Virus record (IMG/VR): IMGVR_UViG_3300010362_000017
Length of the DNA stretch: 64,000 nucleotides
Source of the DNA: an uncultured virus (IMG/VR IMGVR_UViG_3300010362_000017)
Lineage: Duplodnaviria > Heunggongvirae > Uroviricota > Caudoviricetes
Direction: 5' to 3' (one strand)
The notes under the pieces are model-generated. The model saw nothing but the letters and a program-made list of their open reading frames with translations, searched no databases and was not told the origin of the DNA. Shown in pieces: positions 8,316 through 64,000 of the stretch. Position numbers and translations under genes: made by a program. Each line of letters opens with the position of its first letter. The first letter of the stretch is position 1.

Positions 8316-9227
8316 ATGCCGATTGATATGGCATCGATCAAGAACGAGCTTTTCCCGGGCCTCGCGGCCGTGGAAGGTCGTTACAAGAAGATCGAGACCA
8401 AGTGGTCCCGCCTCTTCGAGAAGCGCAGTTCGAAGATGGCACAGGAACGCCGCACGCAGATGGCGTACCTGCCGCTCGCGCGTGAGAAGGCGGAAGCCCA
8501 GAGCACCTACTTCGATGAGCGCGCGGGTGAACGCTGGTTGTACAACGCAGAGATGAAGGAATTGAGCCTTGGGTATATTATTACCAGGAAGGCCGTGGAA
8601 GACAACCAGTATAAGGCAGAGTTCAATCCTTCCAACCTCGGGTTGCAAGACGTCTTTGCGGTGACCAAGGAAATTTACGCCGCGAACATCTTCAACGTCG
8701 GCACCGTCTTCGACCAGCAGGTCGGCGGTGACCAGAAAGCGCTGTTCGCGACGGACCACCCGATCGACATCGGCGTGGTCGGCAACCGTCCCGGCACCGA
8801 CATCGATCTGAACGAGTCCTCGCTGTTGACCGCCATGACGGTCATCCGCAACAACTGGGTTGATGAGCGCAACATCAAAATCAGCGCCCGCGCGGAGCTT
8901 GTCCTTGTCCCCGCGGCTCTGGAGCAAGTCATCGTGCGGCTGCTACGTAGCGAGCTTCGCCCGGGAACCAACGACAACGACATCAACGCCATCCAGCACG
9001 TCGGTGGCGGGTTGCGCGACTACATCGTCGATGAGTTCCTGACCTCACCGTATGCCTGGTTCATCAAAACCGACAAACGTGGCCTGATCTATTACGATCG
9101 CGTTCCGTTCGAAATGGACATGTACGTCGATTTTGACACAGATAATTTGAAGGTGAAGGGGAGGGAGCGGTACTGTTTCAGCTACTTCGACTGGAGGTCC
9201 GTGTACGGGAGCTTCCCCACGTCGTAA
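8316..9227 (+). CDS. Major capsid protein (HK97 fold)
   Basis: 303 aa. ELFPGL, LGYIITRKAVEDN, GGDQKALFATDHP, LVLVPAALE, AWFIKTD, KGRERYCF; RBS GAGGAG. Confidence 0.9.
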   Translation: MPIDMASIKNELFPGLAAVEGRYKKIETKWSRLFEKRSSKMAQERRTQMAYLPLAREKAEAQSTYFDERAGERWLYNAEMKELSLGYIITRKAVEDNQYKAEFNPSNLGLQDVFAVTKEIYAANIFNVGTVFDQQVGGDQKALFATDHPIDIGVVGNRPGTDIDLNESSLLTAMTVIRNNWVDERNIKISARAELVLVPAALEQVIVRLLRSELRPGTNDNDINAIQHVGGGLRDYIVDEFLTSPYAWFIKTDKRGLIYYDRVPFEMDMYVDFDTDNLKVKGRERYCFSYFDWRSVYGSFPTS

Positions 9228-30515: not shown

Positions 30516-31180
30516 CGAAGGTGTTGTACGATCTCGAAAGCGGCGTGCCTGGCGTGCGCCTCGCCACCAAGGACGATGAGTGGCAGATATTCGGACTGCT
30601 GATGCTGCTCCATGCCGAGAACGGCATGTTCCGGCTCAATCGCGACAAGGTGCTTGCCGGTATTCAATGGGCGACCGAGCGCAAGGGCGGCATCATCTTC
30701 TGCATCGACGACAACAAGGGCGTGGTTGCGACGCTGGGGATGTGCATCACGTCGGACTGGTACAGCGACGATGAGTATCTGCTGGAGCGCTGGAACTACG
30801 TTCACCCCGACTATCGCCGCAGTGACTACTCGCGCAAGCTGATCGACCAGGCCAAGTGGACGCACGAATGGTTCAAGCGCACGGGCGTGCTGCTGCCGCT
30901 GCAGGTCGGGATTAACTCCTTCGACCGCACGGAAGCGAAGGTGCGGCTGTACGCGCGGCAGATGGCGTGCATCGGTGCGTTCTTCATGTACGGCTTGCCG
31001 CCGTTGCAGGCGGATAAGATGGCCGACGAAATGCGCCGTATCGACGAGTTGAACCAAAAGAACAAGGGACTACCCATCGGCGAGCAAAAAGTGCGGCCTG
31101 TGGTCGAGACTATTCTCAAGGTAGGCAAGCGGAAACCGGAGCCGCTGTACTTCGCACGGGAGAGCGAAGATGTGCAATAA
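30512..31180 (+). CDS. GNAT-fold acyltransferase-like protein
   Basis: VRLATKDD start, WYSDDEYLLERWNYVHPDYRRS (motif A-like), AKVRLY; lies between ejection genes. Confidence 0.7.
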   Translation: MTKVLYDLESGVPGVRLATKDDEWQIFGLLMLLHAENGMFRLNRDKVLAGIQWATERKGGIIFCIDDNKGVVATLGMCITSDWYSDDEYLLERWNYVHPDYRRSDYSRKLIDQAKWTHEWFKRTGVLLPLQVGINSFDRTEAKVRLYARQMACIGAFFMYGLPPLQADKMADEMRRIDELNQKNKGLPIGEQKVRPVVETILKVGKRKPEPLYFARESEDVQ

Positions 31181-33746: not shown

Positions 33747-36700
33747 GTGATGGCTGAGGACTTTTTCGCGGACATCACAGAGCCGGAACCGGAGCGGACG
33801 GAAGGCCGCCCCGACATTCTGGCGGTGCCCGAGCGCCTGCGCCCGCCCGTGCGCTTCGTGCCGCAAGGTGTGCCGCGCGAGCCGCCGCCGCCGCCGCCGC
33901 CGCCGGCCCCCGCGCAGGAGCCGTTTTACGATCCGATGACCGGCGCGCCGGTGCGAGTGCCGGGCCAGGTCGTGCAAGAGCCGCCTGGGAAGCCGGGGTT
34001 CGTGCAAGGTCTAGGGGAAGGGCTAGGCAGCGCGGTCAGCGGCGCCGCCGAGACCGGCGAAGCAATGGTCAATCGGCTGCGCGGGCGCCCGCTCGCTGAG
34101 CCGACAGAGAGTTTTACGACAGCGCCGGAGGTGGCAGAGCTACCGCCGAGCCAGGGCATGTTTCATCCGTATTGGTGGGGACACATGCTGGGGCACGGCG
34201 CGCCAGCAATGGCCGCTTACGCCCTACCTGGCGGTGCGATCGGCGCCGGCTTGGCGACCTTCATCACCGAATACGGCCCGTCGTTTCGGGCGAATGTCGA
34301 AGCCGGCGTACCGGAAGATCAGGCGCTTCGTACCGCTCTCCAAAGCTCCGGCGTGAATGCGGCTGCGACCGCCGCCATGTTCGGCCTGCCGCTCAGAGTT
34401 TTTACGCAACTGATTGGACAACCGACCGTCGGCGGTGCCGCACAAATCCTGCAGAACTACATTGCCGGTTTGCCTCCAGAGGACGCCTTTAGGGGCGTGG
34501 GAGAGGCGATGCTGGCAGGTCTGTTCGCGGCTGCTCCCGTAGTCGCCGGCAAGGGCATCGCCAGAGTGTACCGGCGAGTGAGAGGCAAGGGCGCCGAGCC
34601 GAAGGTCGAGGGTGAACCAGAGGCCCCACCGGCAGAGCCCGAGGCCCCATCGGCAGAGCCGGCAGCTGAGGTGCCAGCAAAGACGCCAGCTGCCAAGCCG
34701 GCAGAGGAAGCGCCACCGACAGCACCGACAGCACCGACAATATCCGAGCCATCCGCGCCGGCACGGGCGCCGACGGACGCCGATCTCTTTGACTGGATGG
34801 TTCGTACCGGCGGAGAGGGCGAGCCGCCGACGGCCGCCCCCGTGCAGGTCGCTGCGGCTGCGCCTATCCGCGTTGCCCCTCCTCGAGTCGAGCCCCGTGT
34901 CGAGCCGCCGCGGCCGCCCCCGGCAGAGCCGCCTCGCGCGCGGGAGCCGGTCCCGGAGGCCCGGCCGGAGGAGCGCGCGCCAGAGCGTCCAGCAGAGCCG
35001 CCTCGCGCGCAGGAGCCAGATTACTTCTCCGACATCGGCGAGCCGCCGGATTGGGTGACCGAGCGGCTTCCTGAGCCACGGGGAGAACGGCCCCCAGAGG
35101 AACAGCTGCCTTACGATGAGGCCGCAGCGTGGGCGCGCAGGCCGGAAGCCCCGGAACCGCCTCGCGCGCGGGAGCCGGCGCCGAAGCCAGAAGAGTATCG
35201 ACCGCGGGGCGCCCTCCCGCCTGCGGAGGAGATCGGCCAATCCGTTCAGCCGATCCCCGGCTTTGGCGGAATCTTCAAGGTGGGGGACGAGTTCGTTCTT
35301 CGTGACCAGCTGGGCAAGGAGCTTGGGCGTTACGCTACCGCTGACGAAGCTCGCAATGCTGCCCGTGCTCCTCCCGCGGAGGAGCCGGTTGCGCCGCCGC
35401 AGTTCCCGGAGGCGCCCGCCCCCGCACGTGTGCGGGGTGCAATACCCGGGCTGGCTCCCCCGAAGGGTGGCAGGGCGCAGTCGTTGATGGATTTCATCCG
35501 CCAGCACGGCATCGATCCGAACGATCCGATGATCGGCGACGTGCAAGCGATGAACCTGCCCCGCGGCTACATCCGCAAGGGTGGTAAGCCGCTCGATACG
35601 CTGTTGGAAGCGGCGGTTGAGGCCCGCTACATCGATGATCCCGGTTTCAGGGGCGGCGGCGAGCGCACGTCAACTGTCGATGACCTGCTGGCCGCGATGG
35701 ATAAGGACCATCGGGCGCGCAAGGCCAAGAACCCGGAGCAGCAGGTCTGGCCGCAGGGCGAAGAGGTCATGCGCCGCCCGGGTGCCGAGGAGCGCCAGCG
35801 GTCACGCGATCTCGACACGACGGCCCGGAGCATCGAGGAAGCATTCGAGAAAGAGGGCATCAGCAGGAACGAGCTTGATCCAAACACTTTGCGGAACGCA
35901 GCCGAGGCAATGTATCGTCGTGAGCCTGGCTACGAGACACCGCTGGAAGCCTACGATCGAGCCGCCGCATGGCGAGAGGAGGTCTACGGTGAGAAGCGCA
36001 CAGGAGTGCGCGGAGGCCGCGAGAAAGTTTATCCAGGCGGCGAACCGCGAGCAGAACCCCGAGGTGAAGAAGCGCCTGCTGGGCCTCGCCCACGCGAACA
36101 AGGGCCTGGTAAGGCTCGCGAACTTGCTCGCGAAGAAGTCCGCCCCGAAGCCCTAGAGTTTGCACACGATGTCGCCCGGCGCCAGGTCGGACGAGAGATC
36201 GATTTTCTGGACTCGATGCCGCTCAGCCGCGTGCTGGCGGGGCTTGATTTCTCTCACCTCTCCGGTGCTGCCCTCAAGACTGCCGAGTGGGTTCGCAACC
36301 GGCTCACCCGCCTGGTCGGTGACACGCCGGTCCACTTTGTTGCCGAGCGGGATATCCACGAGTTTGCCGGTCATACTGATCCCAAGGCGAGGGTGAATGG
36401 CTTCTGGGCACAGGAGCTTAACACACGGACCAGCAAGCCGGACAGCTTCATTTTTTTGAACGCGGACATGATGTACGCCGGCAACAAGGCCGAGGGCGTC
36501 CATACCGTCCTGCACGAAGCCACCCACGCCGCCACCAATGCCGCCATCGACCGCAACGCCGCGGTGCGGCGCTCGATCCAGGCGATGATGACCGCTCTCA
36601 AGGGAAAGATAACGAAGGGCGGCAAGCCGATCTACGCGATGACGGACGTACACGAGTTCATCGCAGAGGTCTTTAGCAATCCGCAGCTGCAGGAGGCGAT

Positions 36701-39700
36701 GCACGGGGTTCAGACGCCATCGTCGATACGGGCCGCGCTGGGCTGGGCGTCCGGCAAGGGCCTCTCGATGTGGGATGCGATGGTGGAGACGGTGCGGCGT
36801 GCGATCGGTCTGCCGCCCAGGCTGGCCGGCGAGTTGGACAAGATCATGCAGCCGACGCTGTTGGAGACGGCGCTGACGGTCGGCGAGACCGCGCTGCAGG
36901 CACGCGAGAAGATGGAGGCTCCGGCGCGCCGGGCGATGGCGCGAGAGCGTGAGGAGCCCCGGTTCGAGCCCGGCGCCGAGGGCAAGCCGCAGCAGGTCAT
37001 CCCTGGCGCCGAGCGGCGTGTCGGCGAAGCGCTGCAGCGCAAGGCCGAGGCCCCGCTCAAGCCCAAGGTCGAACAGAAAGGGATGGACTTTGGCCTGTTC
37101 GGCGATGAGCGGAACCAGGGTGACCTGTTCGGCGGGCGCGATGTCAAAGGCAAGGCGCTGATCGTTGACGCCGCCAACGAAGCGCTGACCGACAAGCTGC
37201 GGATGTCGAACCATCCCACGCTGTCGAAGATCGCTGGCTACTTGCCGCGCTACAAGCACTACGGCCCCACCGAGGTGCGGGTGAGGACGCAGGACTACTT
37301 CCTGCGCTGGCGCCGCGCCGCCGAGCAATGGATGCGGGACAATGCGGGAAAGATTCTGCCCGACTGGGCGAACCCGTATCAGGCGGAAGCGCTCTCCCAC
37401 GGCAAGGCCAAGGCCCGGTTGGAAGAGGTGATGGCAAAGTTCAAAGAGCCGTTGGCCAAAGCGGTTAACAAACTTGGCAAGCGGGCCTACGAAGAGGCCG
37501 GCGAGTTCTTTCAGGCCAAGCACGCCATCGAGCGCAACAAGGAACTGCGCAAGATCAATCCGACTTTCACCGATCCCGCCGGCATGTCCGACGCCCAGGC
37601 GCAGGCCATCTTGCAGCGCGTGGCTCGCGATCCACGTCGAGCCTTGTTCGAGGATGCCTACAAGAAGATGCGCTCGCTGATCGACGCCACGCTCGATATG
37701 CAGGTGCGCGATGGGCTGATGTCCCAGCAGATGGCTAACGCCTGGCGCCAGCGCTGGCCGGACTACGTGCCCATGCGCCACACCGAGGTCGGGGACATGA
37801 TCGGCATCGGCCGCGGCCTGGATATCCGTGGCAAGGAAAGCCAGCGCGCGTTCGGCCGGCTGTCGCGCGCAGACAACCCTATTCAATATGCGCTGATGCA
37901 AATGGACCGTGCCATCATCCGCGGTGCCAAGAACGAAGTCGGTGAGGCGGTGAGCAACTTCGTCGAGCGGGCGATCACCTCTGATCCAGCGAACAGGGAC
38001 CTATTCAGCACGACCGAGAAGCCTACCAAGCAGCAGATCAATCCGAAGACCGGGCTGGTCGAGACCGTCGTCGATCCCAACTGGCGCAACGATCCCAACA
38101 TCTTCATCTGGAAAAAATACGGTGCGGAGAAGCACGTCTACTTCAAGGGCGAGTATGGCGGCCAGCTGATCCGCGCGCTCAAGAACATGCAGCAGCAGCA
38201 GGCCGGCGAGTTCGTGCGCGCAATGAGCGCGGCGACGCGGTTCCTGGCAAGGCTCAACACTTCGCTCAACCCCGAGTTCATCATCTCCAACTTCGTCCGT
38301 GACGCCGGCGAGGCGTTCATCAACCTGCCGAAGGACCAGCAGGCGGCGCTGGTCAAATCCTTCCGCAAGAATCTGATCCCGGCGTTGTCGGGCGCGTGGA
38401 AGGGGCAGGACAAGGTGACGCTGCGCGGCGGCAGGTGGGCGCAATGGTATCGTGAGTTCGAGGCAGAGGGCGGCAAGATCGGCTACTACGGGGCCGAGAC
38501 TGCGGAGGAGCATAGCGCCAACTTCCAGAAGATGCTCAAGGACCTGCAGCGCGGCCCGCTCTCTGTGAAAAAGATGGGCAAGACCGTTATCGATGGCATC
38601 GATAAGGTCAACACCACGATAGAGAATGCCACGCGCCTGGCGGTCTACGTCGCGGCGCGCGAGAACGGTATCTCCAAGGCGAAGGCCGCCTTCATGGCGC
38701 GCGAAGCGACGGTCAACTTCAACCGCCGCGGCGAGAGCCGGGCGCTATCCTCGGCCTACATGTTCGCCAACGCCGGGCTGCAGGGCACGGTGCGTGGCGT
38801 ACAGGCGCTCAAAAGTTCCCCTCGCGCGCGGAAAGCGGCGGTGGCGTTGGCGGCCAGCGGCGCTGCGCTCACCACGTACAACATCTTTGCCGGCGGCACG
38901 GACAAGGACGGTCGCTCGTTCTATTCCAAGATACCGCCGTGGGAACGGCAGCTGAACTTCATCTTCATGAACCCCACCGGCAACGGGCAGTACATCAAGA
39001 TACCCAAGCCGTTTTTCTACGGCATGTTCTTTGGCATCGGCGATCACCTGGCGAGCTTCGCGTTTGACAGGAAGACTGCTGCCGACACGGCCAAGGGCAT
39101 ATTCTGGGATGCAGCCAAGGCGGTCGATCCGCTGGGGCAGGACGAAGGCTGGGCGCATTGGGTTCCCACCATTGCCAAGCCGCTCGCGCAGCTGGCGCTC
39201 AACGAGAACCCGTGGGGCAACCCGATCTACCCGGAGGAAAAGGACTACAGCAAGTACAAGTCGAAGGCGGAGGGGTTCCACTTTCGCAGCACATCAGAGC
39301 CAGCCAAGTGGGCCGCAAGGATGCTCAATCAGCTGGGCGGTGGCGACAAGAACGTGCCGGGGAGCATCAACGTGGGCGTCGGCACGATATCCACAGACAT
39401 CCACCCCGAGGTCATCGACTATCTGACGGGCTTCGTGACCGGCGGTCTCGGCCGTTTCGGCATGAACATGTACACGTGGGGAACGCGGCTCTACAACGGC
39501 CAGGAATGGATGCCGGAGAAGACGCCGTTCGTCCGCAGGTTCTACGGCGAGGCCCCGCAGCCGGGAGCCGAGCGCGCGCTCTATGCCGAGCAGCGCAAGG
39601 AGGCCGAGGCAGCGAAGCAGCGCAAGACGCCCGGCCCGGAGATGAGATCGGCGCCGGCGTTCCAGGAGGCGCAGAAAGCCAATAAAAAGCTGTACCAAGA

Positions 39701-39881
39701 GATGGATAAGGTGCAGAAAAACGATAGGCTCTCGGAAGCTGAGAAGGACAAGCGCGTCAAGGCGCTGGAGCAGAAGCAGCTGGACAACATGCTCAAGGCA
39801 CGACGGACGTTGGAGCGCGCCCGTGCTGCGCAAGAGAAGCGCAAGCCGACGTTTGCCGTCGGCGGTCTGGTTCGGATTTGA
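33747..39881 (+). CDS. Large polyvalent ejection protein with zincin-like HExxH domain and C-terminal LPD38-like domain
   Basis: 2044 aa. VLHEATHAAT...HEFIAEVFSNP; NPEFIISNFVRD; TVNFNRRG; YIKIPKPF...PTIAKPLAQLALNEN.WG.PIYP. Confidence 0.75.
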   Translation: MMAEDFFADITEPEPERTEGRPDILAVPERLRPPVRFVPQGVPREPPPPPPPPAPAQEPFYDPMTGAPVRVPGQVVQEPPGKPGFVQGLGEGLGSAVSGAAETGEAMVNRLRGRPLAEPTESFTTAPEVAELPPSQGMFHPYWWGHMLGHGAPAMAAYALPGGAIGAGLATFITEYGPSFRANVEAGVPEDQALRTALQSSGVNAAATAAMFGLPLRVFTQLIGQPTVGGAAQILQNYIAGLPPEDAFRGVGEAMLAGLFAAAPVVAGKGIARVYRRVRGKGAEPKVEGEPEAPPAEPEAPSAEPAAEVPAKTPAAKPAEEAPPTAPTAPTISEPSAPARAPTDADLFDWMVRTGGEGEPPTAAPVQVAAAAPIRVAPPRVEPRVEPPRPPPAEPPRAREPVPEARPEERAPERPAEPPRAQEPDYFSDIGEPPDWVTERLPEPRGERPPEEQLPYDEAAAWARRPEAPEPPRAREPAPKPEEYRPRGALPPAEEIGQSVQPIPGFGGIFKVGDEFVLRDQLGKELGRYATADEARNAARAPPAEEPVAPPQFPEAPAPARVRGAIPGLAPPKGGRAQSLMDFIRQHGIDPNDPMIGDVQAMNLPRGYIRKGGKPLDTLLEAAVEARYIDDPGFRGGGERTSTVDDLLAAMDKDHRARKAKNPEQQVWPQGEEVMRRPGAEERQRSRDLDTTARSIEEAFEKEGISRNELDPNTLRNAAEAMYRREPGYETPLEAYDRAAAWREEVYGEKRTGVRGGREKVYPGGEPRAEPRGEEAPAGPRPREQGPGKARELAREEVRPEALEFAHDVARRQVGREIDFLDSMPLSRVLAGLDFSHLSGAALKTAEWVRNRLTRLVGDTPVHFVAERDIHEFAGHTDPKARVNGFWAQELNTRTSKPDSFIFLNADMMYAGNKAEGVHTVLHEATHAATNAAIDRNAAVRRSIQAMMTALKGKITKGGKPIYAMTDVHEFIAEVFSNPQLQEAMHGVQTPSSIRAALGWASGKGLSMWDAMVETVRRAIGLPPRLAGELDKIMQPTLLETALTVGETALQAREKMEAPARRAMAREREEPRFEPGAEGKPQQVIPGAERRVGEALQRKAEAPLKPKVEQKGMDFGLFGDERNQGDLFGGRDVKGKALIVDAANEALTDKLRMSNHPTLSKIAGYLPRYKHYGPTEVRVRTQDYFLRWRRAAEQWMRDNAGKILPDWANPYQAEALSHGKAKARLEEVMAKFKEPLAKAVNKLGKRAYEEAGEFFQAKHAIERNKELRKINPTFTDPAGMSDAQAQAILQRVARDPRRALFEDAYKKMRSLIDATLDMQVRDGLMSQQMANAWRQRWPDYVPMRHTEVGDMIGIGRGLDIRGKESQRAFGRLSRADNPIQYALMQMDRAIIRGAKNEVGEAVSNFVERAITSDPANRDLFSTTEKPTKQQINPKTGLVETVVDPNWRNDPNIFIWKKYGAEKHVYFKGEYGGQLIRALKNMQQQQAGEFVRAMSAATRFLARLNTSLNPEFIISNFVRDAGEAFINLPKDQQAALVKSFRKNLIPALSGAWKGQDKVTLRGGRWAQWYREFEAEGGKIGYYGAETAEEHSANFQKMLKDLQRGPLSVKKMGKTVIDGIDKVNTTIENATRLAVYVAARENGISKAKAAFMAREATVNFNRRGESRALSSAYMFANAGLQGTVRGVQALKSSPRARKAAVALAASGAALTTYNIFAGGTDKDGRSFYSKIPPWERQLNFIFMNPTGNGQYIKIPKPFFYGMFFGIGDHLASFAFDRKTAADTAKGIFWDAAKAVDPLGQDEGWAHWVPTIAKPLAQLALNENPWGNPIYPEEKDYSKYKSKAEGFHFRSTSEPAKWAARMLNQLGGGDKNVPGSINVGVGTISTDIHPEVIDYLTGFVTGGLGRFGMNMYTWGTRLYNGQEWMPEKTPFVRRFYGEAPQPGAERALYAEQRKEAEAAKQRKTPGPEMRSAPAFQEAQKANKKLYQEMDKVQKNDRLSEAEKDKRVKALEQKQLDNMLKARRTLERARAAQEKRKPTFAVGGLVRI

Positions 39882-40459: not shown

Positions 40460-40657
40460 ATGCCAGGCGCCAGCGAAGAGGTTGCCAAGGTTGCCGCGAC
40501 GACGGTCGAGGCGCTTAAGAGTACCCCGGCAATCCTCGCTCTCGTCCTGTTCAACTTGGCCTTCATGGGGGTGGTCACGTACATCCAGTGGAGCAACGGT
40601 GCGCGCTGGGAGAGGGTGATTGAATTGGTGCTCAAGCAATGCGGAGACGGTAAATGA
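40460..40657 (+). CDS. Small membrane protein, holin candidate
   Basis: TM segment AILALVLFNLAFMGVVTYI; coupled to the endolysin start. Confidence 0.5.
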   Translation: MPGASEEVAKVAATTVEALKSTPAILALVLFNLAFMGVVTYIQWSNGARWERVIELVLKQCGDGK

Positions 40658-42144
40658 CCGACGTTCCTCGCTGGCTTCAGGTGATGAGATCGATTACGGG
40701 CACCGACGAGTACGCGGGCGCCGCCAACAACCCGAAGATCATGGCCTGGGTACAGGCGATCGCGGACGCCTATCCGTTCATGGAGAACTACTGCGACGGC
40801 TACACGGGGGACGATATCGCTTGGTGTGGGTTAACAGTCGCCTACTGCATGACCGAGGCGGATATCCAGCCGGTCTGGGGGCCGACCGACACCGACCGCT
40901 GGCTCTGGGCGCAGGCGTGGGCCGGCAATCAGCAGATGTTCCGGCACACCACCCGGCTGACGCCGGGCACCATCGTAGTGATGACGCGATCGGGCGGCGG
41001 ACATGTGACGCTCTTTGAGGAATGGGACGACGGCATGCTCGTATGCAGGGGCGGGAACCAAAGCGACAGTGTTTGCACCGCCAGGTACGATCCTTCCACG
41101 GTCATCGCCTATTGCTGGCCGGTCGCTGCCGGCGAGCAGCCGCAGATACCCGTGCAGGACAGGCCGCTGCTGGAGGAAGGCGACGAAGGCCCCGACGTCG
41201 TGGACATGCAGGGCATGATCCCGTTCTTCACGGGGGAAGTCGACGGCGATTTCGGGCCAATCACCAACGACAACGTGCTGGTCTACCAGTTCACGCGCGG
41301 GCTGGGTGTCGACGGCCAGTGCGGGCAGCAGACCTGGACGGCGCTCTACGACGATGCGCCGGCTGTGATCAACCCGCCGGCGCCACCGCCCAATCCGTTG
41401 ACGCCGGACCAGCAAGCCGCGATCAAGAAGATCGCCGAGGACAGCGACATCGCGGAGTACGACTGGGAGGACAGAGGCGAGGCCAGTTTCGGATACACCC
41501 AAGGCATGGCCCTGGCGTTCGCCCAGACGTACCTCAAGCTGCAGGCTGGGCACTCTGCCGCGCTCGAAATGACCAAGCCGCGGACCAACAGCGACAAGGA
41601 CGTATTCAATCTCTGGCGTAGCGAGTTTGAGGATGATGGCATGTCGAATGAGGCGAGCACGCCTGCAGCTGATAGGCTGATTCACCTCTACGCCTTCATG
41701 CTGGGCAGCGGGATGAGGGAATCGTCCGGGGTGTACTGTACGGGGAGGGACCAGAGCGCTGGCTCGTCAAGCCAGACCAGCGACACATGTGAGAGTGGGC
41801 TGTTCCAGACTTCGTATAATGCCCACGGCGCCAGCGATCCCGAGTTCGACATGCTGATGGCCGAGTACGGCACAGGACAATCGCCGGGCTACACCGAGAC
41901 CTTTGCGGATGGCGTGTCGTGCGGTTCGAGCGACTGGGAATGTGTCGGCTCTGGGCCTGGTCTGTTGTTCCAACGGCTGTGCAAGATCATGCCGGCGTTC
42001 GCCGTCGAGACGCACGCGCTCACGCTGCGGAACCTGTGCAACCACTACGGTCCCGTGATCAGGTTCGAGGTCGAGCTAAAGCGCGACGCCGCGGCGATGT
42101 TCAAGAAGGTGCAAACCTATTTGGATGGGGCAGCAATGGCATGA
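40654..42144 (+). CDS. Modular endolysin: TIGR02594/CHAP-like domain + peptidoglycan-binding domain + putative lysozyme-like domain
   Basis: PRWL...NPKIMAW...IAWCG...GHV...GGNQSDSV; EGDEGPDV...DGDFGP.T...DG.CG..TW.AL; MRESSG...GLFQTS. Confidence 0.8.
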   Translation: MTDVPRWLQVMRSITGTDEYAGAANNPKIMAWVQAIADAYPFMENYCDGYTGDDIAWCGLTVAYCMTEADIQPVWGPTDTDRWLWAQAWAGNQQMFRHTTRLTPGTIVVMTRSGGGHVTLFEEWDDGMLVCRGGNQSDSVCTARYDPSTVIAYCWPVAAGEQPQIPVQDRPLLEEGDEGPDVVDMQGMIPFFTGEVDGDFGPITNDNVLVYQFTRGLGVDGQCGQQTWTALYDDAPAVINPPAPPPNPLTPDQQAAIKKIAEDSDIAEYDWEDRGEASFGYTQGMALAFAQTYLKLQAGHSAALEMTKPRTNSDKDVFNLWRSEFEDDGMSNEASTPAADRLIHLYAFMLGSGMRESSGVYCTGRDQSAGSSSQTSDTCESGLFQTSYNAHGASDPEFDMLMAEYGTGQSPGYTETFADGVSCGSSDWECVGSGPGLLFQRLCKIMPAFAVETHALTLRNLCNHYGPVIRFEVELKRDAAAMFKKVQTYLDGAAMA

Positions 42145-45006: not shown

Positions 45007-46125
45007 CTATGCTGCCTCCGGCGGCGCCCCGCCCAGCCTCTCTCTGGTGCGCTGCCATTCTCCGGCCAGCATCTCCCAGTCGATGGCTTCAAACTCGCCT
45101 TCGCGCGGGGCAACCATCTGGTTCCAGAACTGTACGGCGCCGGTCAGGGTGTGCATCTGCTGCAGTTGCGCCGCCACCCAATTCAAGGCGTCCTGTGCGT
45201 CCTTCTTGGGATCGGGCATGCCCTGTGCTGGCGCGACCTGCTGGCTTCGCATATCAACGGCGGTGGCAATCCGCTCGTAGATTTGTGAGTGCCTGTCCGA
45301 AAGCATCTGCAGGATGGGATCGTTCTGCTCGTCCCACTCGCGTATCTCGTCCTCGGTCTTGGCTTGGCCGATCATGCGGATATAGGTGGCCGCCCATTCA
45401 TCGGGGCCTTTGCCGGGGCCGAGTATGATTTTATGGGGACCGGCCGGTGTGGTCGGTTCTTGCTTGGGCGTTTCCTGCTTGGGCGCGGAACCCCCGCCCT
45501 CCGCCGGGGCCGAATCGGCCGCCGCAGATTTTTGGTCTCGCGCAGGACCGGGTACGCGAGTCTTGTTCGTGTCGCCTTCGTCGGCATCCCCATCCTCGAA
45601 GTCGCCGGCGGGAACCTGGTAGAGCGAAAGCAGAAAGGATTTCCGCGCGCCGCTATGGCATTTGTTGACGGCCTTGTCGTCGTAGTCGCCCTTGCGCGTG
45701 CGGGCGACGCACATGCCGGTGTGCAGCTGCGGCGGCAGGCTCTCACCCGATTCGTGGTAGACGATGAACTCGTATTGAATCGCGAGACGACCGCCCTCGA
45801 CCGTTTCGACCTTGATCTGGCTCTGCGTGACGGCCAGCCCGTTCGCGCCCATCAATGGCGTGATGGCGTACAGCAGGTCTTCGAAGCGGGCGTAGTCGTA
45901 GTTGAAATAGTCGTTGTGCCCACGTTTGCGGATTGTGCCAACTTCCTTCATCACGTTGGCGATAGCCCTGGTGATCTTGCCGGTCGGCCGGGGAGGCGGC
46001 GCTGCGGTGCGCTGCGCAATCTCCTGCCTTGCGGCACCGTCGACTTGCGTCAGCCCGGCTGTGGCGGTGGTTCCACGCGGCCCCGGCACCATCGGGACAC
46101 GGGGTTTGGAGGGTTGATCGTTCAT
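45007..46125 (-). CDS. erf: ERF-family single-strand annealing protein
   Basis: IRKRGHNDYFNYDYARFEDL...HESGE...DDKAVNKCHSGARK.FL..LYQVP. Confidence 0.8.
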   Translation of the reverse strand: MNDQPSKPRVPMVPGPRGTTATAGLTQVDGAARQEIAQRTAAPPPRPTGKITRAIANVMKEVGTIRKRGHNDYFNYDYARFEDLLYAITPLMGANGLAVTQSQIKVETVEGGRLAIQYEFIVYHESGESLPPQLHTGMCVARTRKGDYDDKAVNKCHSGARKSFLLSLYQVPAGDFEDGDADEGDTNKTRVPGPARDQKSAAADSAPAEGGGSAPKQETPKQEPTTPAGPHKIILGPGKGPDEWAATYIRMIGQAKTEDEIREWDEQNDPILQMLSDRHSQIYERIATAVDMRSQQVAPAQGMPDPKKDAQDALNWVAAQLQQMHTLTGAVQFWNQMVAPREGEFEAIDWEMLAGEWQRTRERLGGAPPEAA

Positions 46126-52419: not shown

Positions 52420-52673
52420 CCTACGATCCTAACTACAAGCTCAAGCACAAGCCGCCGCCAGTCCACCGGCTGGCGTACTACAAGCGCCTGCCACCGCCCA
52501 TGGTGGGCGATCCGCGGCCCGATCTCGGCTGGCACTGCAAGAACCCCTGGAAGCAGCGCTGCGAGGCGGTCTACGCCGCGATGATGGCGTTCAAGCACGG
52601 CACCGTGCCGCCCAGGAGCAGGGTTGGTCTCTGGTACTACGACGTGGACACCGACCATTACAGGCAGGCGTGA
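52416..52673 (+). CDS. Hypothetical protein
   Basis: Coupled at both ends. Confidence 0.5.
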   Translation: MTYDPNYKLKHKPPPVHRLAYYKRLPPPMVGDPRPDLGWHCKNPWKQRCEAVYAAMMAFKHGTVPPRSRVGLWYYDVDTDHYRQA

Positions 52674-54196
52674 TGCAAGAGTTGCGACCATACCAGGAGG
52701 AGGCCCTGCAAGCCCTTCGGGAGACCGTGGGGCAGGGCGTTCGCCGGCTGGTAGTCCAGGCCCCGACCGGGAGCGGAAAGACGCTGCTTGCGGCTACGGT
52801 TGTCCAGGCGTGCCTAGCCAAGCGCAATCGAGCGGTTTTCTGCGTGCCCGCCATCCAGCTGGTCGACCAGACCGTGGAAATGTTCTACGCGCAGGGCATC
52901 CGGGGGATTGGCGTTATCCAGGCTAACCACGTCATGACGGATTGGTCCCAGCCGGTCCAGGTCGCCTCCATCCAGACCATCCGCAGCCGCCGCGTCTACC
53001 CGGACGCCAAGGTCGTGATCATCGATGAGGTGCACCAGCTACATAAGGCCCACGTGAAATGGCTGCACCATCCCGATTGGGAGAACGTGCCGTTCATCGG
53101 CCTGTCCGCCACGCCCTGGACGACCGGGCTGGGGCGGTACTTCGACTCGCTCTTGGTTATGTCGACCACCGCGGACCTGATCGAGCAGGGCTATCTCAGC
53201 AAGTTCAAGGTGTTCGCGTCGGACCACCCGGACTTGTCGCACGTCAAGACCGTGGCCGGCGACTACCACGAAGGCCAGCTTTCCAGGGTGATGCAGCAAA
53301 GCCCGCTGGTCGCCAACGTCGTGGAAACCTGGCGGTCGAAGTGGAACAAGGACAAGACATTCCTGTTCGCGGTCGACTGCGCCCACGCCCAGATGCTCCA
53401 GGCGCGCTTTCGCGATGCCGGGATTAGCTGCGGCTACCAGGACGCCAACACCTCGCTGGCTGATCGGGCGGCGCTCAAGCGGGCGTTCCACAACGGCGAG
53501 GTGAGGATCATCTCCAACGTCGGCACGTTGACGGTGGGCGTCGACTACGATGTGCGTTGCCTGATCCTGGCACGGCCGACCAAATCGGAAATGCTGTACG
53601 TGCAGATCATCGGGCGGGCGTTGCGCACCGCCGAGGGCAAAGACCACGCGCTGATCCTCGATCACACCGACACCACTAGTCGGTTGGGATTTGTCACCGA
53701 TATCCATCACGAGCACCTGTCGCAGGGCAAGCTCGACTCTACCCAGAAGCACGTGCCCCGTCCGGTACTGCCCAAGCCGTGTCCCAAGTGCACGGCGCTG
53801 ATGCCGGCCGGCGTGAAGGTGTGTCCGGAGTGCGGGTTCGAGCGCAAGGCGCCGGAGAGCAAGATCATCGAGCGCGAGGGCCGCTTGGTCGAGTGGGACT
53901 ACCAGTTCCGCAAGCCCAAGTACCCCAAGGCGATAGACGAGCCGATAATCTACACCTACGAAGAGAAGGCCCGGTTCTACGCCCAGCTGCGCGGCTACGG
54001 TATTGCCCGCAACTTCAAGCCGGGCTGGGCCAAGCTCAAATACCGGGAGAAGTTCAATGGCGTCTGGCCGGAGTGGGCCTGGGAGCGGCACCATCCCTTG
54101 CCGCCCGGCCCGGAGGTCATGATGTTCATCAAATCCCGGTTCATCGCGTGGGCCAATGATCCGAGAAACCCCAACTACCGACCGCGCTCTGCGTGA
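52670..54196 (+). CDS. SF2 DExH helicase (YejH/RadD-like) with C-terminal Zn ribbon
   Basis: LRPYQ, APTGSGKT, IIDEVH, LSATP, QIIGRALR, CPKC...CPEC. Confidence 0.9.
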   Translation: MMQELRPYQEEALQALRETVGQGVRRLVVQAPTGSGKTLLAATVVQACLAKRNRAVFCVPAIQLVDQTVEMFYAQGIRGIGVIQANHVMTDWSQPVQVASIQTIRSRRVYPDAKVVIIDEVHQLHKAHVKWLHHPDWENVPFIGLSATPWTTGLGRYFDSLLVMSTTADLIEQGYLSKFKVFASDHPDLSHVKTVAGDYHEGQLSRVMQQSPLVANVVETWRSKWNKDKTFLFAVDCAHAQMLQARFRDAGISCGYQDANTSLADRAALKRAFHNGEVRIISNVGTLTVGVDYDVRCLILARPTKSEMLYVQIIGRALRTAEGKDHALILDHTDTTSRLGFVTDIHHEHLSQGKLDSTQKHVPRPVLPKPCPKCTALMPAGVKVCPECGFERKAPESKIIEREGRLVEWDYQFRKPKYPKAIDEPIIYTYEEKARFYAQLRGYGIARNFKPGWAKLKYREKFNGVWPEWAWERHHPLPPGPEVMMFIKSRFIAWANDPRNPNYRPRSA

Positions 54197-54422
54197 CGTG
54201 GTGCGCCGCGCGATAGACGACAATCAGTACAAGGCGGAGTTTACGCCCTGGTGCAACACGTTCATGTGCAACAAGTGCTACGGCGAGATCGTCAGCAAGC
54301 AAGATGACAAGACCTACCGCGCGCTGACAGAGCCGCCGCCGCGCGAGCGCAAGCTAGACCTGGGCGAGCCTCGCCCGGTCGAGGACGTGCAACTTGCCGC
54401 CCGCAAGATCGAGCTTGATTGA
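54156..54422 (+). CDS. Small protein carrying an MCP-like peptide (RRAIDDNQYKAEF.P); start 54156 or GTG 54198
   Basis: 8-residue identity with MCP D96-F103. Confidence 0.6.
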   Translation: MIRETPTTDRALRDVVRRAIDDNQYKAEFTPWCNTFMCNKCYGEIVSKQDDKTYRALTEPPPRERKLDLGEPRPVEDVQLAARKIELD

Positions 54423-60834: not shown

Positions 60835-62403
60835 CTAGCCTAAGTCGAGCACGCGCCCCGTGGGGCCGGTACGCGCTTCCTGGCTGGTCGCCGGCCGCGC
60901 GCGTTTGCTCCACGCGCGGAGTCGCTGCATCTTCTCCGGCATGGAGTCGACCAGCGGCACAACCTTGCCGGCGGCTGCGATCAGGTCGGCCGGCGTGATC
61001 TCGCGGGCACCATCGGCGAAGGCCGTAAACATGGCCTCGTCAATTAGGCTCGCTACCTCGGCGCCTGTGAACTTGTCGCAATGGCTGGCAATCTCGTCGG
61101 CACCATCGGCGCCGAATAGCTTCACGGGATCACGGCCACGGCTGCGGGTGGTTGCCTCGATGATTTGCGCGCGCTCGATAGGCGTGGGCAAGTCAACGAA
61201 GAACATTTCATCCCAGCGGCCTTTGCGTAGAAGCTCCGGGGGGAGCGCTTCCACATCGTTGGCAGTGGCAAAAATGAACGCCTGATTTGTGCGGTCGTTC
61301 ATCCATGTCAGCATGGCGCCCAAGGCATCGGAAGCCACACCGCCGTCACCCTGCGGCCCGGTGCTGCCGGCGAAAGCCTTGTCCATCTCGTCTATCCAAA
61401 GGACGACGCGCCCCATGGACTCAACGGTACGCTGCGCCTCCCGGATATTGCGCTCGCTCTCGCCTACGTATTTGGAGCGCAACGCGCCCATATCCCAGCG
61501 GATGATTGGGCAACGCCATGCGGTGCCGGTCGCCTTGGCGCTAAAGGTCTTGCCACAGCCACTAACGCCGATGACCAAGACGCCCTTGGGGATTGCCAGG
61601 CCATAGGCTCTGGCCTCCGGGCTATAGGCAATGGTCCGCTGCATGAGCCACCCCTTCATGCTGTCGAGGCCGCCTACGGCGTCGAGGCCGCCAGGCAAAG
61701 GCTCAACCCAAGTAAGGAGTCCGCTGCGGGCGATGACTCGCTTTTTCTCCGCCGCGATCATCTCGGGATCAATGCGACGAGTCTTGACCAATGACGCGGC
61801 GAAAGCGGCCTCGGCCTCCAAGCTATTCAAGCCAATGGCTGCATCTATCGCGATGTCGCGATTGCCGTTCAGGGGCTCCACGCGCTCGCCCCCGTTTTTC
61901 ATGGTGCGGTCGAGTACTTGCCCGATCTCTTCGCGGTCGGGCTTCGGCCAGTCCATCACCACAGCATCGCCACCGCCAAGCTCGGGCGGTACGTTGCCGG
62001 AAGGCGCGAGCACGATGATTGAAACGCCAAGCGGGGGAAGCTCGCGCGCGAGGTTGCGCAACTGCCTCAAAGTCTGAATGCCGATGGGGCCGTCTAACCA
62101 CTTGTGCAGGTCGCGCATAACCCACACGGTGCGGCCGCCGCCTTCCTTGGCCTTGGCGCGAATGAATTTGAGCGCTTCGGTGGCGTCCTGCGTCTCTTGG
62201 CCGGCGACTAGCTTGCCGCTCAAGTCGGTCAGCCCTTGGGCACAGTCCCAGAACATTGGCATATACCCGGCGCTCTCACACGCGCGGGCAAGGTAAAGCT
62301 CGACTCGCACCTCCTCCGGGCTGTTAACCCAAAGGACGGCGTTGCGAGCACGAAGCAATGCGGCCACATCGGCCGCTTGCGTCTGCGATCTGGTAGGGGG
62401 CAT
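60835..62403 (-). CDS. Ycf46-like AAA+ ATPase
   Basis: Walker A GVSGCGKT, Walker B VLWIDEMDK, ATAND...LPPELLRKGRWDEMFFVDLP; degenerate N-terminal AAA domain. Confidence 0.85.
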   Translation of the reverse strand: MPPTRSQTQAADVAALLRARNAVLWVNSPEEVRVELYLARACESAGYMPMFWDCAQGLTDLSGKLVAGQETQDATEALKFIRAKAKEGGGRTVWVMRDLHKWLDGPIGIQTLRQLRNLARELPPLGVSIIVLAPSGNVPPELGGGDAVVMDWPKPDREEIGQVLDRTMKNGGERVEPLNGNRDIAIDAAIGLNSLEAEAAFAASLVKTRRIDPEMIAAEKKRVIARSGLLTWVEPLPGGLDAVGGLDSMKGWLMQRTIAYSPEARAYGLAIPKGVLVIGVSGCGKTFSAKATGTAWRCPIIRWDMGALRSKYVGESERNIREAQRTVESMGRVVLWIDEMDKAFAGSTGPQGDGGVASDALGAMLTWMNDRTNQAFIFATANDVEALPPELLRKGRWDEMFFVDLPTPIERAQIIEATTRSRGRDPVKLFGADGADEIASHCDKFTGAEVASLIDEAMFTAFADGAREITPADLIAAAGKVVPLVDSMPEKMQRLRAWSKRARPATSQEARTGPTGRVLDLG

Positions 62404-62473
62404 CTGTTTAGCTCCTGTGTTGGACTCATCAGGCGCCGCGTCACGGCGCGAGGGGCTTGCGCCCCTTTCGTCC

Positions 62474-62677
62474 TTAGCCTCCCCAGCCATGTTCGCGTTG
62501 CCAAGCAAGCTCGCGAAGCTCAAGCTCGCGCCCCTCGATCACGCGCTCGGCGTTGGGGTTGCCGTGCCGCATGTCCCAGCGGCGAAAGCACGGCCAGCAC
62601 GCAATGAGCCCGGTCGCCTTGGCGCCTCGACACAGCGGGCAAGTGGTGGAAGCTCTGACGCGGGGGTTGTCGCTCAT
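62474..62677 (-). CDS. Zn-finger protein
   Basis: CPLC...CWPC. Confidence 0.55.
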   Translation of the reverse strand: MSDNPRVRASTTCPLCRGAKATGLIACWPCFRRWDMRHGNPNAERVIEGRELELRELAWQREHGWGG

Positions 62678-62835
62678 GAGCGCACCCCACACGCGCGGTA
62701 GAAGCGGTCACGGTCGAAGCGGGGGTTTTGGCGTTGGCAGAGATCAGCCATTGCCTGCGCGTTTTGCCGGCGTTCCCATTCGTCCTTGATGGCGCGGATA
62801 GCGACGGCCAGCGCTCGGAAGTGCTTGCGTGTCAT
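62674..62835 (-). CDS. Small conserved phage early protein
   Basis: MTRKHFRALA...NPRFDRDRFYRACG. Confidence 0.7.
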   Translation of the reverse strand: MTRKHFRALAVAIRAIKDEWERRQNAQAMADLCQRQNPRFDRDRFYRACGVRS

Positions 62836-62869
62836 GTGTCTAGTTCCTTGGTTTGAGTGAAACGCCCAT

Positions 62870-62920
62870 AAGGTACAGAGGCTTAACACCCTGTCAATAT
62901 GGCATCATGCCAATATGACA
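62870..62920 (-). promoter_or_regulatory. Early leftward promoter TTGACA-16-TACCTT with an overlapping imperfect palindrome
   Basis: -35 at 62897-62892, -10 at 62875-62870; palindrome TGTCAATATGGCAT-C-ATGCCAATATGACA at 62892-62920. Confidence 0.6.
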
Positions 62921-63207
62921 TAAGCCCTTGATCTATGCCGTACATTTATTTTTTGGACGCAATCAGGTCAGCGCCGCTGCCATATCTAGGGGTAGTAGGT
63001 CGGCCGATAGGTCAGCACTATTGCCAAGTCGTTGATTTCGCTGTGAGTTCCGGCGATTGAGCCTTGACCGGCTGCGCGAATCATGGCGAGATTCGCGTCG
63101 CGCGCGCGCGCATTCTTCTGTTGCCACAGTCTAGGGACTACCGAGAAAGCAAGGAAGAAGAAGCAAGTAAGACAGAGCGGCGGCGGTTTAGCTTCAAGGT
63201 GTAGTCA

Positions 63208-63420
63208 ATGGGCTGGGGCTACGATGATTTGCCGGAAATAGACCTGGGGGCGCAAGCCACCGATGAGGTCAAGCTCGGCCAACGCTACAGCGGCAAGCGG
63301 CACGCTAACACATGGGCCGCAGCGGGCCGGCAAGCGCAAGTCCCCATTTGGTGGCAAGAGGTCAAGCGGGTATGCCGCGAAGCCGGCGAGGCGCTCGAAC
63401 GGTCCCGGGTGACGCTATGA
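63208..63420 (+). CDS. Hypothetical protein
   Basis: 70 aa; its stop overlaps the next ATG. Confidence 0.45.
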   Translation: MGWGYDDLPEIDLGAQATDEVKLGQRYSGKRHANTWAAAGRQAQVPIWWQEVKRVCREAGEALERSRVTL

Positions 63421-63863
63421 CAACGCGCCGCGCCTTCCTGGCCGGCCTCGGTAGCCTCTTGGCCGCCCCAGCCATCGTGCAGTGCTCTAACCTCATGTCG
63501 CTCCGCGGCGTGCCGCTCCAGCTATGGGAGCACCGCGAGGTCGGCATCGGCTACGTCATCACCCGCCAGGCCGTCGAGAGCATGACTCGCGAGGCAAGCG
63601 AGCGCTGGCGTGAGCATCTGCGCACAACCCCGGACCTGACCGCCCATCAGCTATGGGACACGGATATGCTGGAGATCGCCGGCCCGCCTGCCGACGTGTT
63701 CAAAAGCTGGCGCCTCGGCCTCGGCTATGAAGGCCGCTACCCCAAACGCCTAGAACCGCGCCCCGGCCGCCTCTGGGTGCAAGGTGACCGCACAGACCGC
63801 GCCGCGCGCTACTTGCTCGGCCAACAAGCCATACCAGGCGACAAAGCGCGATCTACCAGCTAA
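63417..63863 (+). CDS. Protein with twin-arginine-like N-terminus and an MCP-like peptide
   Basis: MTTRRAFLAGLGSLLAAPAIV; EHREVGIGYVITRQAVE vs MCP EMKELSLGYIITRKAVE. Confidence 0.65.
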   Translation: MTTRRAFLAGLGSLLAAPAIVQCSNLMSLRGVPLQLWEHREVGIGYVITRQAVESMTREASERWREHLRTTPDLTAHQLWDTDMLEIAGPPADVFKSWRLGLGYEGRYPKRLEPRPGRLWVQGDRTDRAARYLLGQQAIPGDKARSTS

Positions 63864-63873
63864 CTTCCAAGGC

Positions 63874-64000
63874 ATGGGAAAGCCAACCACACCACGCCCT
63901 CGCAACGCCCTCGGCCAATACCTGGTCCGCCCCGGCGCAACACCGCGCAAGCGACCAGACCAGCCCCAGCCCGTCGACGCATGGTCTGGACAAGGTGGCG
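63874..64000 (+). CDS. 3'-truncated ORF; weak small-terminase candidate
   Basis: Open to the window edge (MGKPTTPRPRNALGQY...); the call is positional only. Confidence 0.25.
   Translation, partial: MGKPTTPRPRNALGQYLVRPGATPRKRPDQPQPVDAWSGQGG

Follow-up and report, generated by a model that had tools for sequence, protein, structure and literature searches.

Among the main triggers of bacterial immunity are the capsid and portal proteins, which a phage cannot easily mutate. Capsid proteins are known to be sensed by CapRel, Lit/Gol and Avs7, Avs8 and Avs10, in the case of Lit and CapRel through short motifs (PMC9712102, PMC13581612); the predicted contacts of CapRel lie on the P-domain sheet and the spine helix (PMC9712102), and Avs7, Avs8 and Avs10 bind the A-domain of the capsid protein (PMC13581612). 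All of these are host sensors and not phage decoys, and such capsid-sensing defences provide a selective reason for a phage to make a decoy; the term "decoy" has been used for host systems in the available part of 10.1101/2023.04.06.535777. No sensor for the Mu gpT-like major capsid proteins (MCPs) was identified in the literature searched. For one small phage protein, the DSR2 inhibitor DSAD1, competition with a structural trigger for binding to the host sensor has been proposed; this is a protein which acts against a tail-tube sensor and whose competition was seen by cryo-EM; the accessible portions of that report (PMC11087589) describe neither an export leader nor descent from the trigger gene.

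Here we describe a gene, ORF 63417-63863, from a 64,000-nucleotide stretch of DNA (the window) of an uncultured virus (IMG/VR IMGVR_UViG_3300010362_000017). The gene is conserved and under selection, contains an MCP-derived segment and lies at the head of the late operon. The reading we prefer, to which we would give a probability of roughly 0.4, is that it encodes an optional accessory capsid decoy for a host factor that reads the P-domain, routed to the membrane, and by analogy it would then work like DSAD1.

The gene, its surroundings and its leader

The window represents most of a ~70-kb uncultured podovirus-like phage with a G+C content of 63%. Close relatives, with MCP identities of 83-95%, are 65-72 kb in length, the nearest record is a 13-kb fragment from which the gene is absent, and there is no cultured relative with more than 52% MCP identity. 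The features concerned are as follows.

63208..63420, + strand: upstream ORF, 70 aa, its stop overlapping the start of the gene
63417..63863, + strand: the gene, 148 aa, second in a rightward operon that follows the divergent gap 62890-63207
63417..63518, + strand: leader, comprising RRxFL, a hydrophobic stretch, AAPAIV and then the family's conserved linker to residue 34
63729..63860, + strand: C-terminal extension, residues 105-148, unconserved
8316..9227, + strand: MCP of the Mu gpT-like HK97 group, the source family of the pieces

The MCP matches phrog_371 (E 2e-7) and, through ESM Atlas, PF10124/PF25209 (score 0.99), and is 51.5% identical to an annotated MCP. The start of the gene is supported by the overlap of its ATG with the stop of ORF 63208-63420 (ATGA) and by a GC3 of 0.85 in codons 1-104, compared to 0.68 in codons 105-148; the residues encoded by the latter are absent from the orthologues. 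Seven codons of the gene differ from those of a 99.1% identical strain, four of them silently, and the three amino-acid changes all fall within residues 140-147. No family could be assigned to the gene in Pfam, PHROG or NCBIfam scans, its full-length product had no matches in 50,697 GenBank phage records or in viral contigs and two in a set of 5.8 billion proteins, and an ESM Atlas search with residues 30-108 gave no usable match. The upstream ORF likewise has no family and no match in related genomes, and a search for sigma-70 promoters across 62500-64000 found none. The divergent intergenic region contains a GC-repeat hairpin followed by a T-rich run (63094-63110), which is at chance level in shuffles. 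Elsewhere in the window family scans identified a portal (1523-3826, PF23899), a GNAT protein (30512-31180), an LPD38 protein (33747-39881), a peptidoglycan-binding protein (40654-42144), ERF (45007-46125), a helicase (52670-54196) and an AAA ATPase (60835-62523).

The sequence-only reading from which this work started had described an RRxFL leader with a hydrophobic stretch and AAPAIV, and it is present as described (TRRAFL, residues 3-8), with a moderately hydrophobic h-region (residues 7-21, mean hydropathy 2.05). Within a leader family of 184 members, collected by likeness to the window leader, RR is present in 182 and F or L at RR+3 in 174, and the spacing from RR to the AP motif is nearly fixed at a median of 13 residues. 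PAIV is followed by RA in 109/184 members and by QC in the window ORF. Bacterial lipoboxes follow the pattern [LVI][ASTVI][GAS]C; the window leader (I-V-Q-C) has no lipobox, and five of the 184 members have a Cys at most two residues after PAIV.

When the leader profile was compared with 185,579 prokaryote genomes eight loci were recovered, and the N-terminal pattern recurs in the four long ones that were scanned, all of them periplasmic solute-binding proteins; the AAPAIVR ending is common to the window leader type and to DctP and ABC binding proteins. The window ORF does not match the Tat signal families PF10518 and TIGR01409 at their curated cut-offs and one of 14 leader-family members matches these families (E 0.024); cellular look-alike leaders also fall under the PF10518 cut-off, so the PF10518 test is weak. 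This is a twin-arginine-type leader of the alphaproteobacterial kind, for which Tat targeting is likely; cleavage of the window protein by signal peptidase I is uncertain. Short leader genes also occur in assembled genomes of Hyphomicrobiales and Methylocapsa (L408 and L414), where that of L408 adjoins a terminase, which hints at alphaproteobacterial hosts for the leader family.

The capsid-like segment and the predicted mini-domain

63528..63578, + strand: MCP-derived strand and short helix, ORF residues 38-54 corresponding to MCP 79-95 (8550-8600)
54156..54422, + strand: leaderless ORF behind the helicase, with a piece of MCP 91-105 at 54204-54248 (11/15)

It had been noted that ORF residues 38-54 are identical to MCP 79-95 at 10 of 17 positions and that this piece overlaps the one at 54204, and both observations hold: the common part is MCP 91-95 and the joint span MCP 79-105. 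The two pieces are the best two non-self matches when the window is searched with the MCP by tblastn (54204-54248, E 4e-6; 63537-63578, E 0.009). The Smith-Waterman score of the ORF against the MCP, 57, is reached by 1/10000 shuffles of the ORF and 4/10000 shuffles of the MCP, and among 914 window frames the ORF ranks second, behind the 54204 piece with a score of 70; across the whole window, a best frame scoring at least 55 is obtained with 10 of 100 shuffled MCPs. The comparison with shuffled controls is thus clear pairwise and borderline window-wide, and the doubt that the latter raises is removed by the orthologues, in which the MCP-like stretch is kept, their payload profile matching the MCP profile over MCP 78-105 (probability 96%, E 2e-9).

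When the 17 codons of the segment are compared with those of the MCP three are identical, seven synonymous and seven changed, and since identity at codon positions 1, 2 and 3 is 9, 15 and 5 of 17 the likeness has been kept in the protein and not in the DNA. The motif GYxITRxAxxDN, which had been put forward as a signature of the family, fits only 5/40 members, with the DN (D96-N97, invariant in MCPs) kept in 6/40; a shorter motif, G[YF]x[IV]TR, fits 32/40. Across the 40 segment-aligned members the residues kept are G86 (40/40), Y/F87 (40/40), R91 (37/40), T90 (35/40), L85 (34/40) and E82 (27/40). The window piece scores 57.5 against its own MCP clade, 59.8 against a 55%-identical sister clade and 67 against one further MCP; as it is no closer to its own clade than to sister clades, a copying from the present MCP is not supported, and it may be an old copy or come from a sister lineage. 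None of eight other window proteins matched the payload significantly. There was no support for a further, N-arm piece of the MCP within the ORF, columns 25-42 and the C-terminal helix scoring within shuffles, and a match of 63729-63776 to MCP 20-34 is not significant.

63549..63722, + strand: predicted folded mini-domain, residues 45-102, strand-helix-helix-strand-strand-helix (AlphaFold2, 21 sequences)
63639..63680, + strand: beta-hairpin, residues 75-88, candidate diverged copy of MCP 268-282 (9117-9161), the family ranking 1-2 of 289 offsets at the predicted register

The payload had been thought of as a short displayed epitope; it is instead predicted to be a folded domain (residues 45-102), with an AlphaFold2 pLDDT of 82-92 over residues 51-100, 72 over 41-50 and below 50 over 17-41. 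The first strand and helix of the model are the MCP segment, and the equivalents of E82 and L85 are conserved yet precede the predicted strand (45-49), leaving an extended edge. The hairpin shares 5/12 identities with MCP 271-282. With a 12-member family the predicted register ranks second of 289 offsets and is equalled by 0/300 column shuffles (1/300 when the window row is left out); as an unguided maximum the match is not significant (76-189 of 300 shuffles) and hhalign did not find it. Four leaderless relatives, placed at the same MCP 268-282 register, give rank 1/289 and 0/300 shuffles. The window domain probably holds the C-terminal hairpin of the MCP, with moderate support.

The C-terminal hairpin and the strand that precedes the spine helix form a pair at the tip of the P-domain in the HK97 topology. 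As modelled, the mini-domain looks like such a P-domain tip from which the A-domain has been deleted, where the placing of the pieces on the HK97 fold follows this general topology and the AlphaFold2 model of the MCP has a pLDDT of 37. The P-loop is placed near the three-fold axis of an HK97-fold capsid in the available text of 10.1101/2022.09.09.507160. Sequence searches found no solved structure related to the MCP, Foldseek gave no match of the mini-domain at E 0.001 in PDB or BFVD, and the best VIA match has a Z of 6.6 with no capsid protein among the matches listed; such fold searches neither show nor exclude likeness to a small part of the HK97 fold. The 148-aa ORF is without a complete N-arm, E-loop, P-domain or A-domain, and 28 profile columns align to the MCP.

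Leader genes and capsid pieces in other phages

With the first 62 residues of the ORF as query 88 representatives were found at E 0.001, and a profile of 14 sequences recovered at least 2885 proteins among 8000 scored, mostly through the leader. The leader, the MCP segment and a tail containing D, G-P and W are common to the members of one subfamily. In 55/184 short leader proteins this MCP superfamily is represented by a segment of at least 21 bits, a share inflated by queries that contained the segment, compared to 0/184 shuffles. The MCP gene was found by the 62-residue N-terminus in 21 of 25 related records, all chosen for having this MCP; full homologues of the gene are found in two of the 25, and in two of the 12 that are at least 90% complete; in records that are fragments the gene could have been missed. 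This small phage gene is optional and variable among close relatives. Relative to two orthologues dN/dS is 0.34 and 0.39 in the leader, 0.38 and 0.24 in the segment and 0.70 and 0.83 in the tail, over large distances and with ortholog pairs found by protein likeness; these values indicate that leader and MCP segment are under purifying selection. The leader-plus-capsid-piece genes form a real family, recurrent and selected.

In unrelated phages, too, the leader often carries pieces of a phage's own capsid or portal proteins. A pattern search of 22 near-complete genomes identified 19 leader genes in 18 genomes, with a pattern that missed four known leader genes (that of G010 among them), and each payload was matched against the proteins of all 22 genomes. 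For seven of the 19, the window included, the best match is a protein of 300-580 aa from the same genome, with scores of 49-152 against null values of 48 (95%) and 52 (99%). The six targets outside the window are four major head proteins of three families, one portal or head-tail adaptor and one unassigned protein; two of the seven payloads score almost as well on the MCP of another phage. The remaining 12 leader genes have no source for the payload in their own genome. A PHROG scan of 84 leader proteins gave a head or connector family for only four at E 0.05, the low number being due to the shortness of the pieces.

In the clade of the window (14 genomes: the window, ten close relatives and three more distant) MCP segments of at least 24 bits turn up away from the MCP gene in 15 of 13382 frames, spread over 10 genomes, where about two such frames would be expected by chance. 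Eleven map to MCP 1-23, 48-67, 79-105 or 285-301, one to MCP 41-53 and three short ones to 213-224. Pieces in the leader family come from MCP 1-37, 48-68, 76-128 and 269-303, with 1/55 from 130-260. Conservation in the middle of the MCP (130-262), at 0.50-0.55, is on a par with that elsewhere (0.57), so the scarcity of pieces from it is not an artefact of detection, and the pieces are biased against the A-domain.

Genes with MCP pieces occur with or without the leader and on different scaffolds. In the six relatives whose gene neighbourhood was compiled (G003, G004, G005, G010, G014 and G022) they stand at the head of the late operon, where they precede the large terminase or portal and share the orientation of the MCP, and the window gene occupies the matching late-operon place, again oriented like the MCP. 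Four of the leaderless genes are minis.

L081:1743-2009 (G022): leaderless mini
G003:57711-58379: leaderless mini
G004:48061-48684: leaderless mini
G005:23040-23486: leaderless mini

The order in these four is N-terminal helix, C-terminal hairpin and then strand-helix; they join MCP 1-18 and 268-282, to which 86-105 is added in three of the four. In G022 the leaderless mini directly follows the leader gene. Two further leaderless genes with MCP pieces, G004:56477-57178 (-) and G005:30492-30749 (-), close with a hydrophobic stretch and then TRRFW, mirroring the leader, which suggests that tethering to the membrane may matter more than export. Leader genes also occur in tandem (L235:2116-2361 and the gene after it; L236:86-331), the first of the pair carrying a piece like MCP 276-294 (21.9 bits) and the second 83-98 and 54-67. 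A different twin-arginine leader in G012 (27625-28014, -) carries MCP 48-67 (48.8 bits), and this piece fits its own MCP clade best (75.8, compared to 45.5 for the window clade).

The other MCP-piece gene of the window, ORF 54156, departs from this late-operon placing, being located behind the helicase, and may really start at GTG 54198 or 54201. It matches only MCPs and has no orthologue in 24 related records, so the suggestion that the window holds a pair of genes presenting one segment in a cytoplasmic and in a tethered form is not supported. An RKLDL motif near the C-terminus is common to 54156-54422 and the minis G004:48061-48684 and G005:23040-23486.

Explanations for the gene and comparison with known systems

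Should the protein be a decoy, its payload would fold into a domain of ~60 residues, as the model predicts, that rebuilds the tip of the capsid P-domain from the C-terminal hairpin together with the strand and helix that lead up to the spine helix; having lost the A-domain and most of the spine it could not be expected to assemble. Made just before or with the MCP, it would bind a host factor that reads this face of the HK97 fold, for example a CapRel-type sensor, and the twin-arginine leader would take the complex out of play, either by holding it at the inner membrane or by hitchhiker export, the Tat pathway being described as co-exporting signal-less partners in the accessible part of PMC4273604. 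The borrowed leader would then serve phages as a cassette to be used again and again, each time with a graft of the head-protein surface that is sensed by the host. The conservation of the segment, dN/dS values of 0.24-0.39, the repertoire of the clade and the own-genome head-protein payloads all favour the decoy reading. Opposed to it are that plain Tat export leads to the periplasm, away from cytoplasmic sensors, that a copy of a trigger could activate rather than block the sensor, that 12/19 leader genes have no own-genome source, that the piece does not track its own MCP clade better than sister clades, that in the window subfamily the MCP origin of the hairpin is not significant without the predicted register and that 3/15 clade frames map to MCP 213-224. 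It is a good deal more doubtful, and in our view unlikely, that the gene belongs to a modular "bait and remove" form of counter-immunity, in which the sensed surface of a phage's own capsid or portal, rebuilt as a small folded domain on a borrowed Tat leader or a C-terminal membrane tail, would drag cytoplasmic capsid sensors to the membrane or out of the cell.

Chance likeness to the MCP is refuted and keeps next to no probability, for the ~10 of 100 shuffled MCPs that reach a similar best score window-wide are set against the profile-profile match (E 2e-9), the 55/184 leader proteins compared to 0/184 shuffles and a register that ranks 1/287 with 0/100 shuffles. It would also seem quite improbable that the gene is near-neutral debris, conserved capsid stretches being the sites at which divergent phages would recombine and leave jobless scraps behind a mobile leader: a patchy and mosaic distribution, the singleton ORF 54156 and a tail (105-148) that looks non-coding are what such a process would leave, but third codon positions have eroded while the protein was kept, dN/dS is well below 1 in leader and segment (in pairs found by protein likeness), and orthologues that are only 35-47% identical still have an open frame and the fold in common.

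The other two explanations give the protein a function. We regard it as on the unlikely side that the capsid tip was exapted as a handy stable domain, exported by Tat for a role in the periplasm or membrane that has nothing to do with capsid sensing; it might exclude superinfecting phages, time lysis or clog the Tat translocase. A leader that stays invariant while the payloads of its family, at least 2885 proteins, are very mixed, and that resembles the signal peptides of periplasmic binding proteins and keeps an AxA-like site (RA in 109/184), together with the 12/19 payloads lacking an own-genome source and a drifting tail (dN/dS 0.70-0.83), would fit this well, yet the same MCP segments are carried by leaderless genes and by genes with a C-terminal hydrophobic tail, in unrelated phages the leader has repeatedly received grafts of head-protein pieces, from no fewer than four families of capsid or portal proteins, and residues outside the predicted core are conserved. 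Rather unlikely, too, is a modulator of assembly or a poison for competitors, whereby the mini-domain parks capsid subunits, scaffold or satellite capsid-redirecting proteins at the membrane and so tunes the phage's own head assembly or spoils that of co-infecting relatives. The pieces come from the N-arm, E-loop and P-domain, regions through which HK97-fold capsid subunits contact each other and the scaffold, with scaffold binding the N-arm (PMC11922011, 10.1101/2022.09.09.507160; for scaffold, PMC11922011); the genes lie in the late operon, and for several pieces the fit to sister MCP clades equals or exceeds that to their own. Against this, D96-N97, invariant in MCPs, is kept in only 6/40 minis, the gene is optional, with full homologues in 2/25 related records, and a competitor poison made with the phage's own MCP would need self-immunity.

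Whichever explanation holds, the family is real and as far as searched undescribed: the literature searched, which takes in few subscription papers, gave no description of Tat-leader capsid-fragment genes, and phage-gene screens in supplements could bear on novelty. New here are the folded-domain model, the evidence for the hairpin, the repertoire across the clade, in which leaderless and C-tailed forms occur, and the under-representation of the A-domain. Were the decoy reading true, this widespread family of selected mini-proteins would let phages counter immunity without any change to the structural gene, and would supply ready-made baits with which to pull down unknown sensors; if "bait and remove" were true, the catalogue of grafted pieces would map the virion surfaces that bacteria sense, the pieces here pointing to sensors of the P-domain tip rather than the known ones of the A-domain. 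Even if the decoy reading fails, the family is a clear case in which new small proteins, predicted to be folded, arose from pieces of an essential structural gene and a host export signal.

A number of known systems share features with the window protein. The Tat signal peptides of alphaproteobacterial solute-binding proteins (PF10518, TIGR01409) have the same RRxFL, hydrophobic stretch and AAPAIVR ending, and a folded passenger, a feature of Tat substrates, is predicted here by the pLDDT of 82-92 over residues 51-100; in contrast to these cellular signals the window leader is encoded by a phage, has a capsid-derived passenger, fails to reach the curated cut-offs and, at the likely cleavage site, reads QC where RA is usual. 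The HK97-fold MCPs of the Mu gpT-like group (PF10124, PF25209, phrog_371) supplied the 79-95 segment and, probably, the 268-282 hairpin as well, but the window protein retains about a tenth to a fifth of their sequence, without the A-domain, E-loop or full spine helix, and would not be expected to form a shell. Type I KH and secretin N-domain-like folds have the same order of strands and helices as the model (Z 4-5), but the scores are at background level, there is no GxxG loop and the sequence traces to the MCP, the resemblance being one of common arrangement only. Avs7, Avs8 and Avs10 are unlikely targets as the A-domain, which they read according to the accessible text on them, is the part left out of the mini-domain. 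Finally, unlike DSAD1, the window protein, known here from its sequence and predicted fold, has its origin in a capsid gene family and bears a twin-arginine leader.
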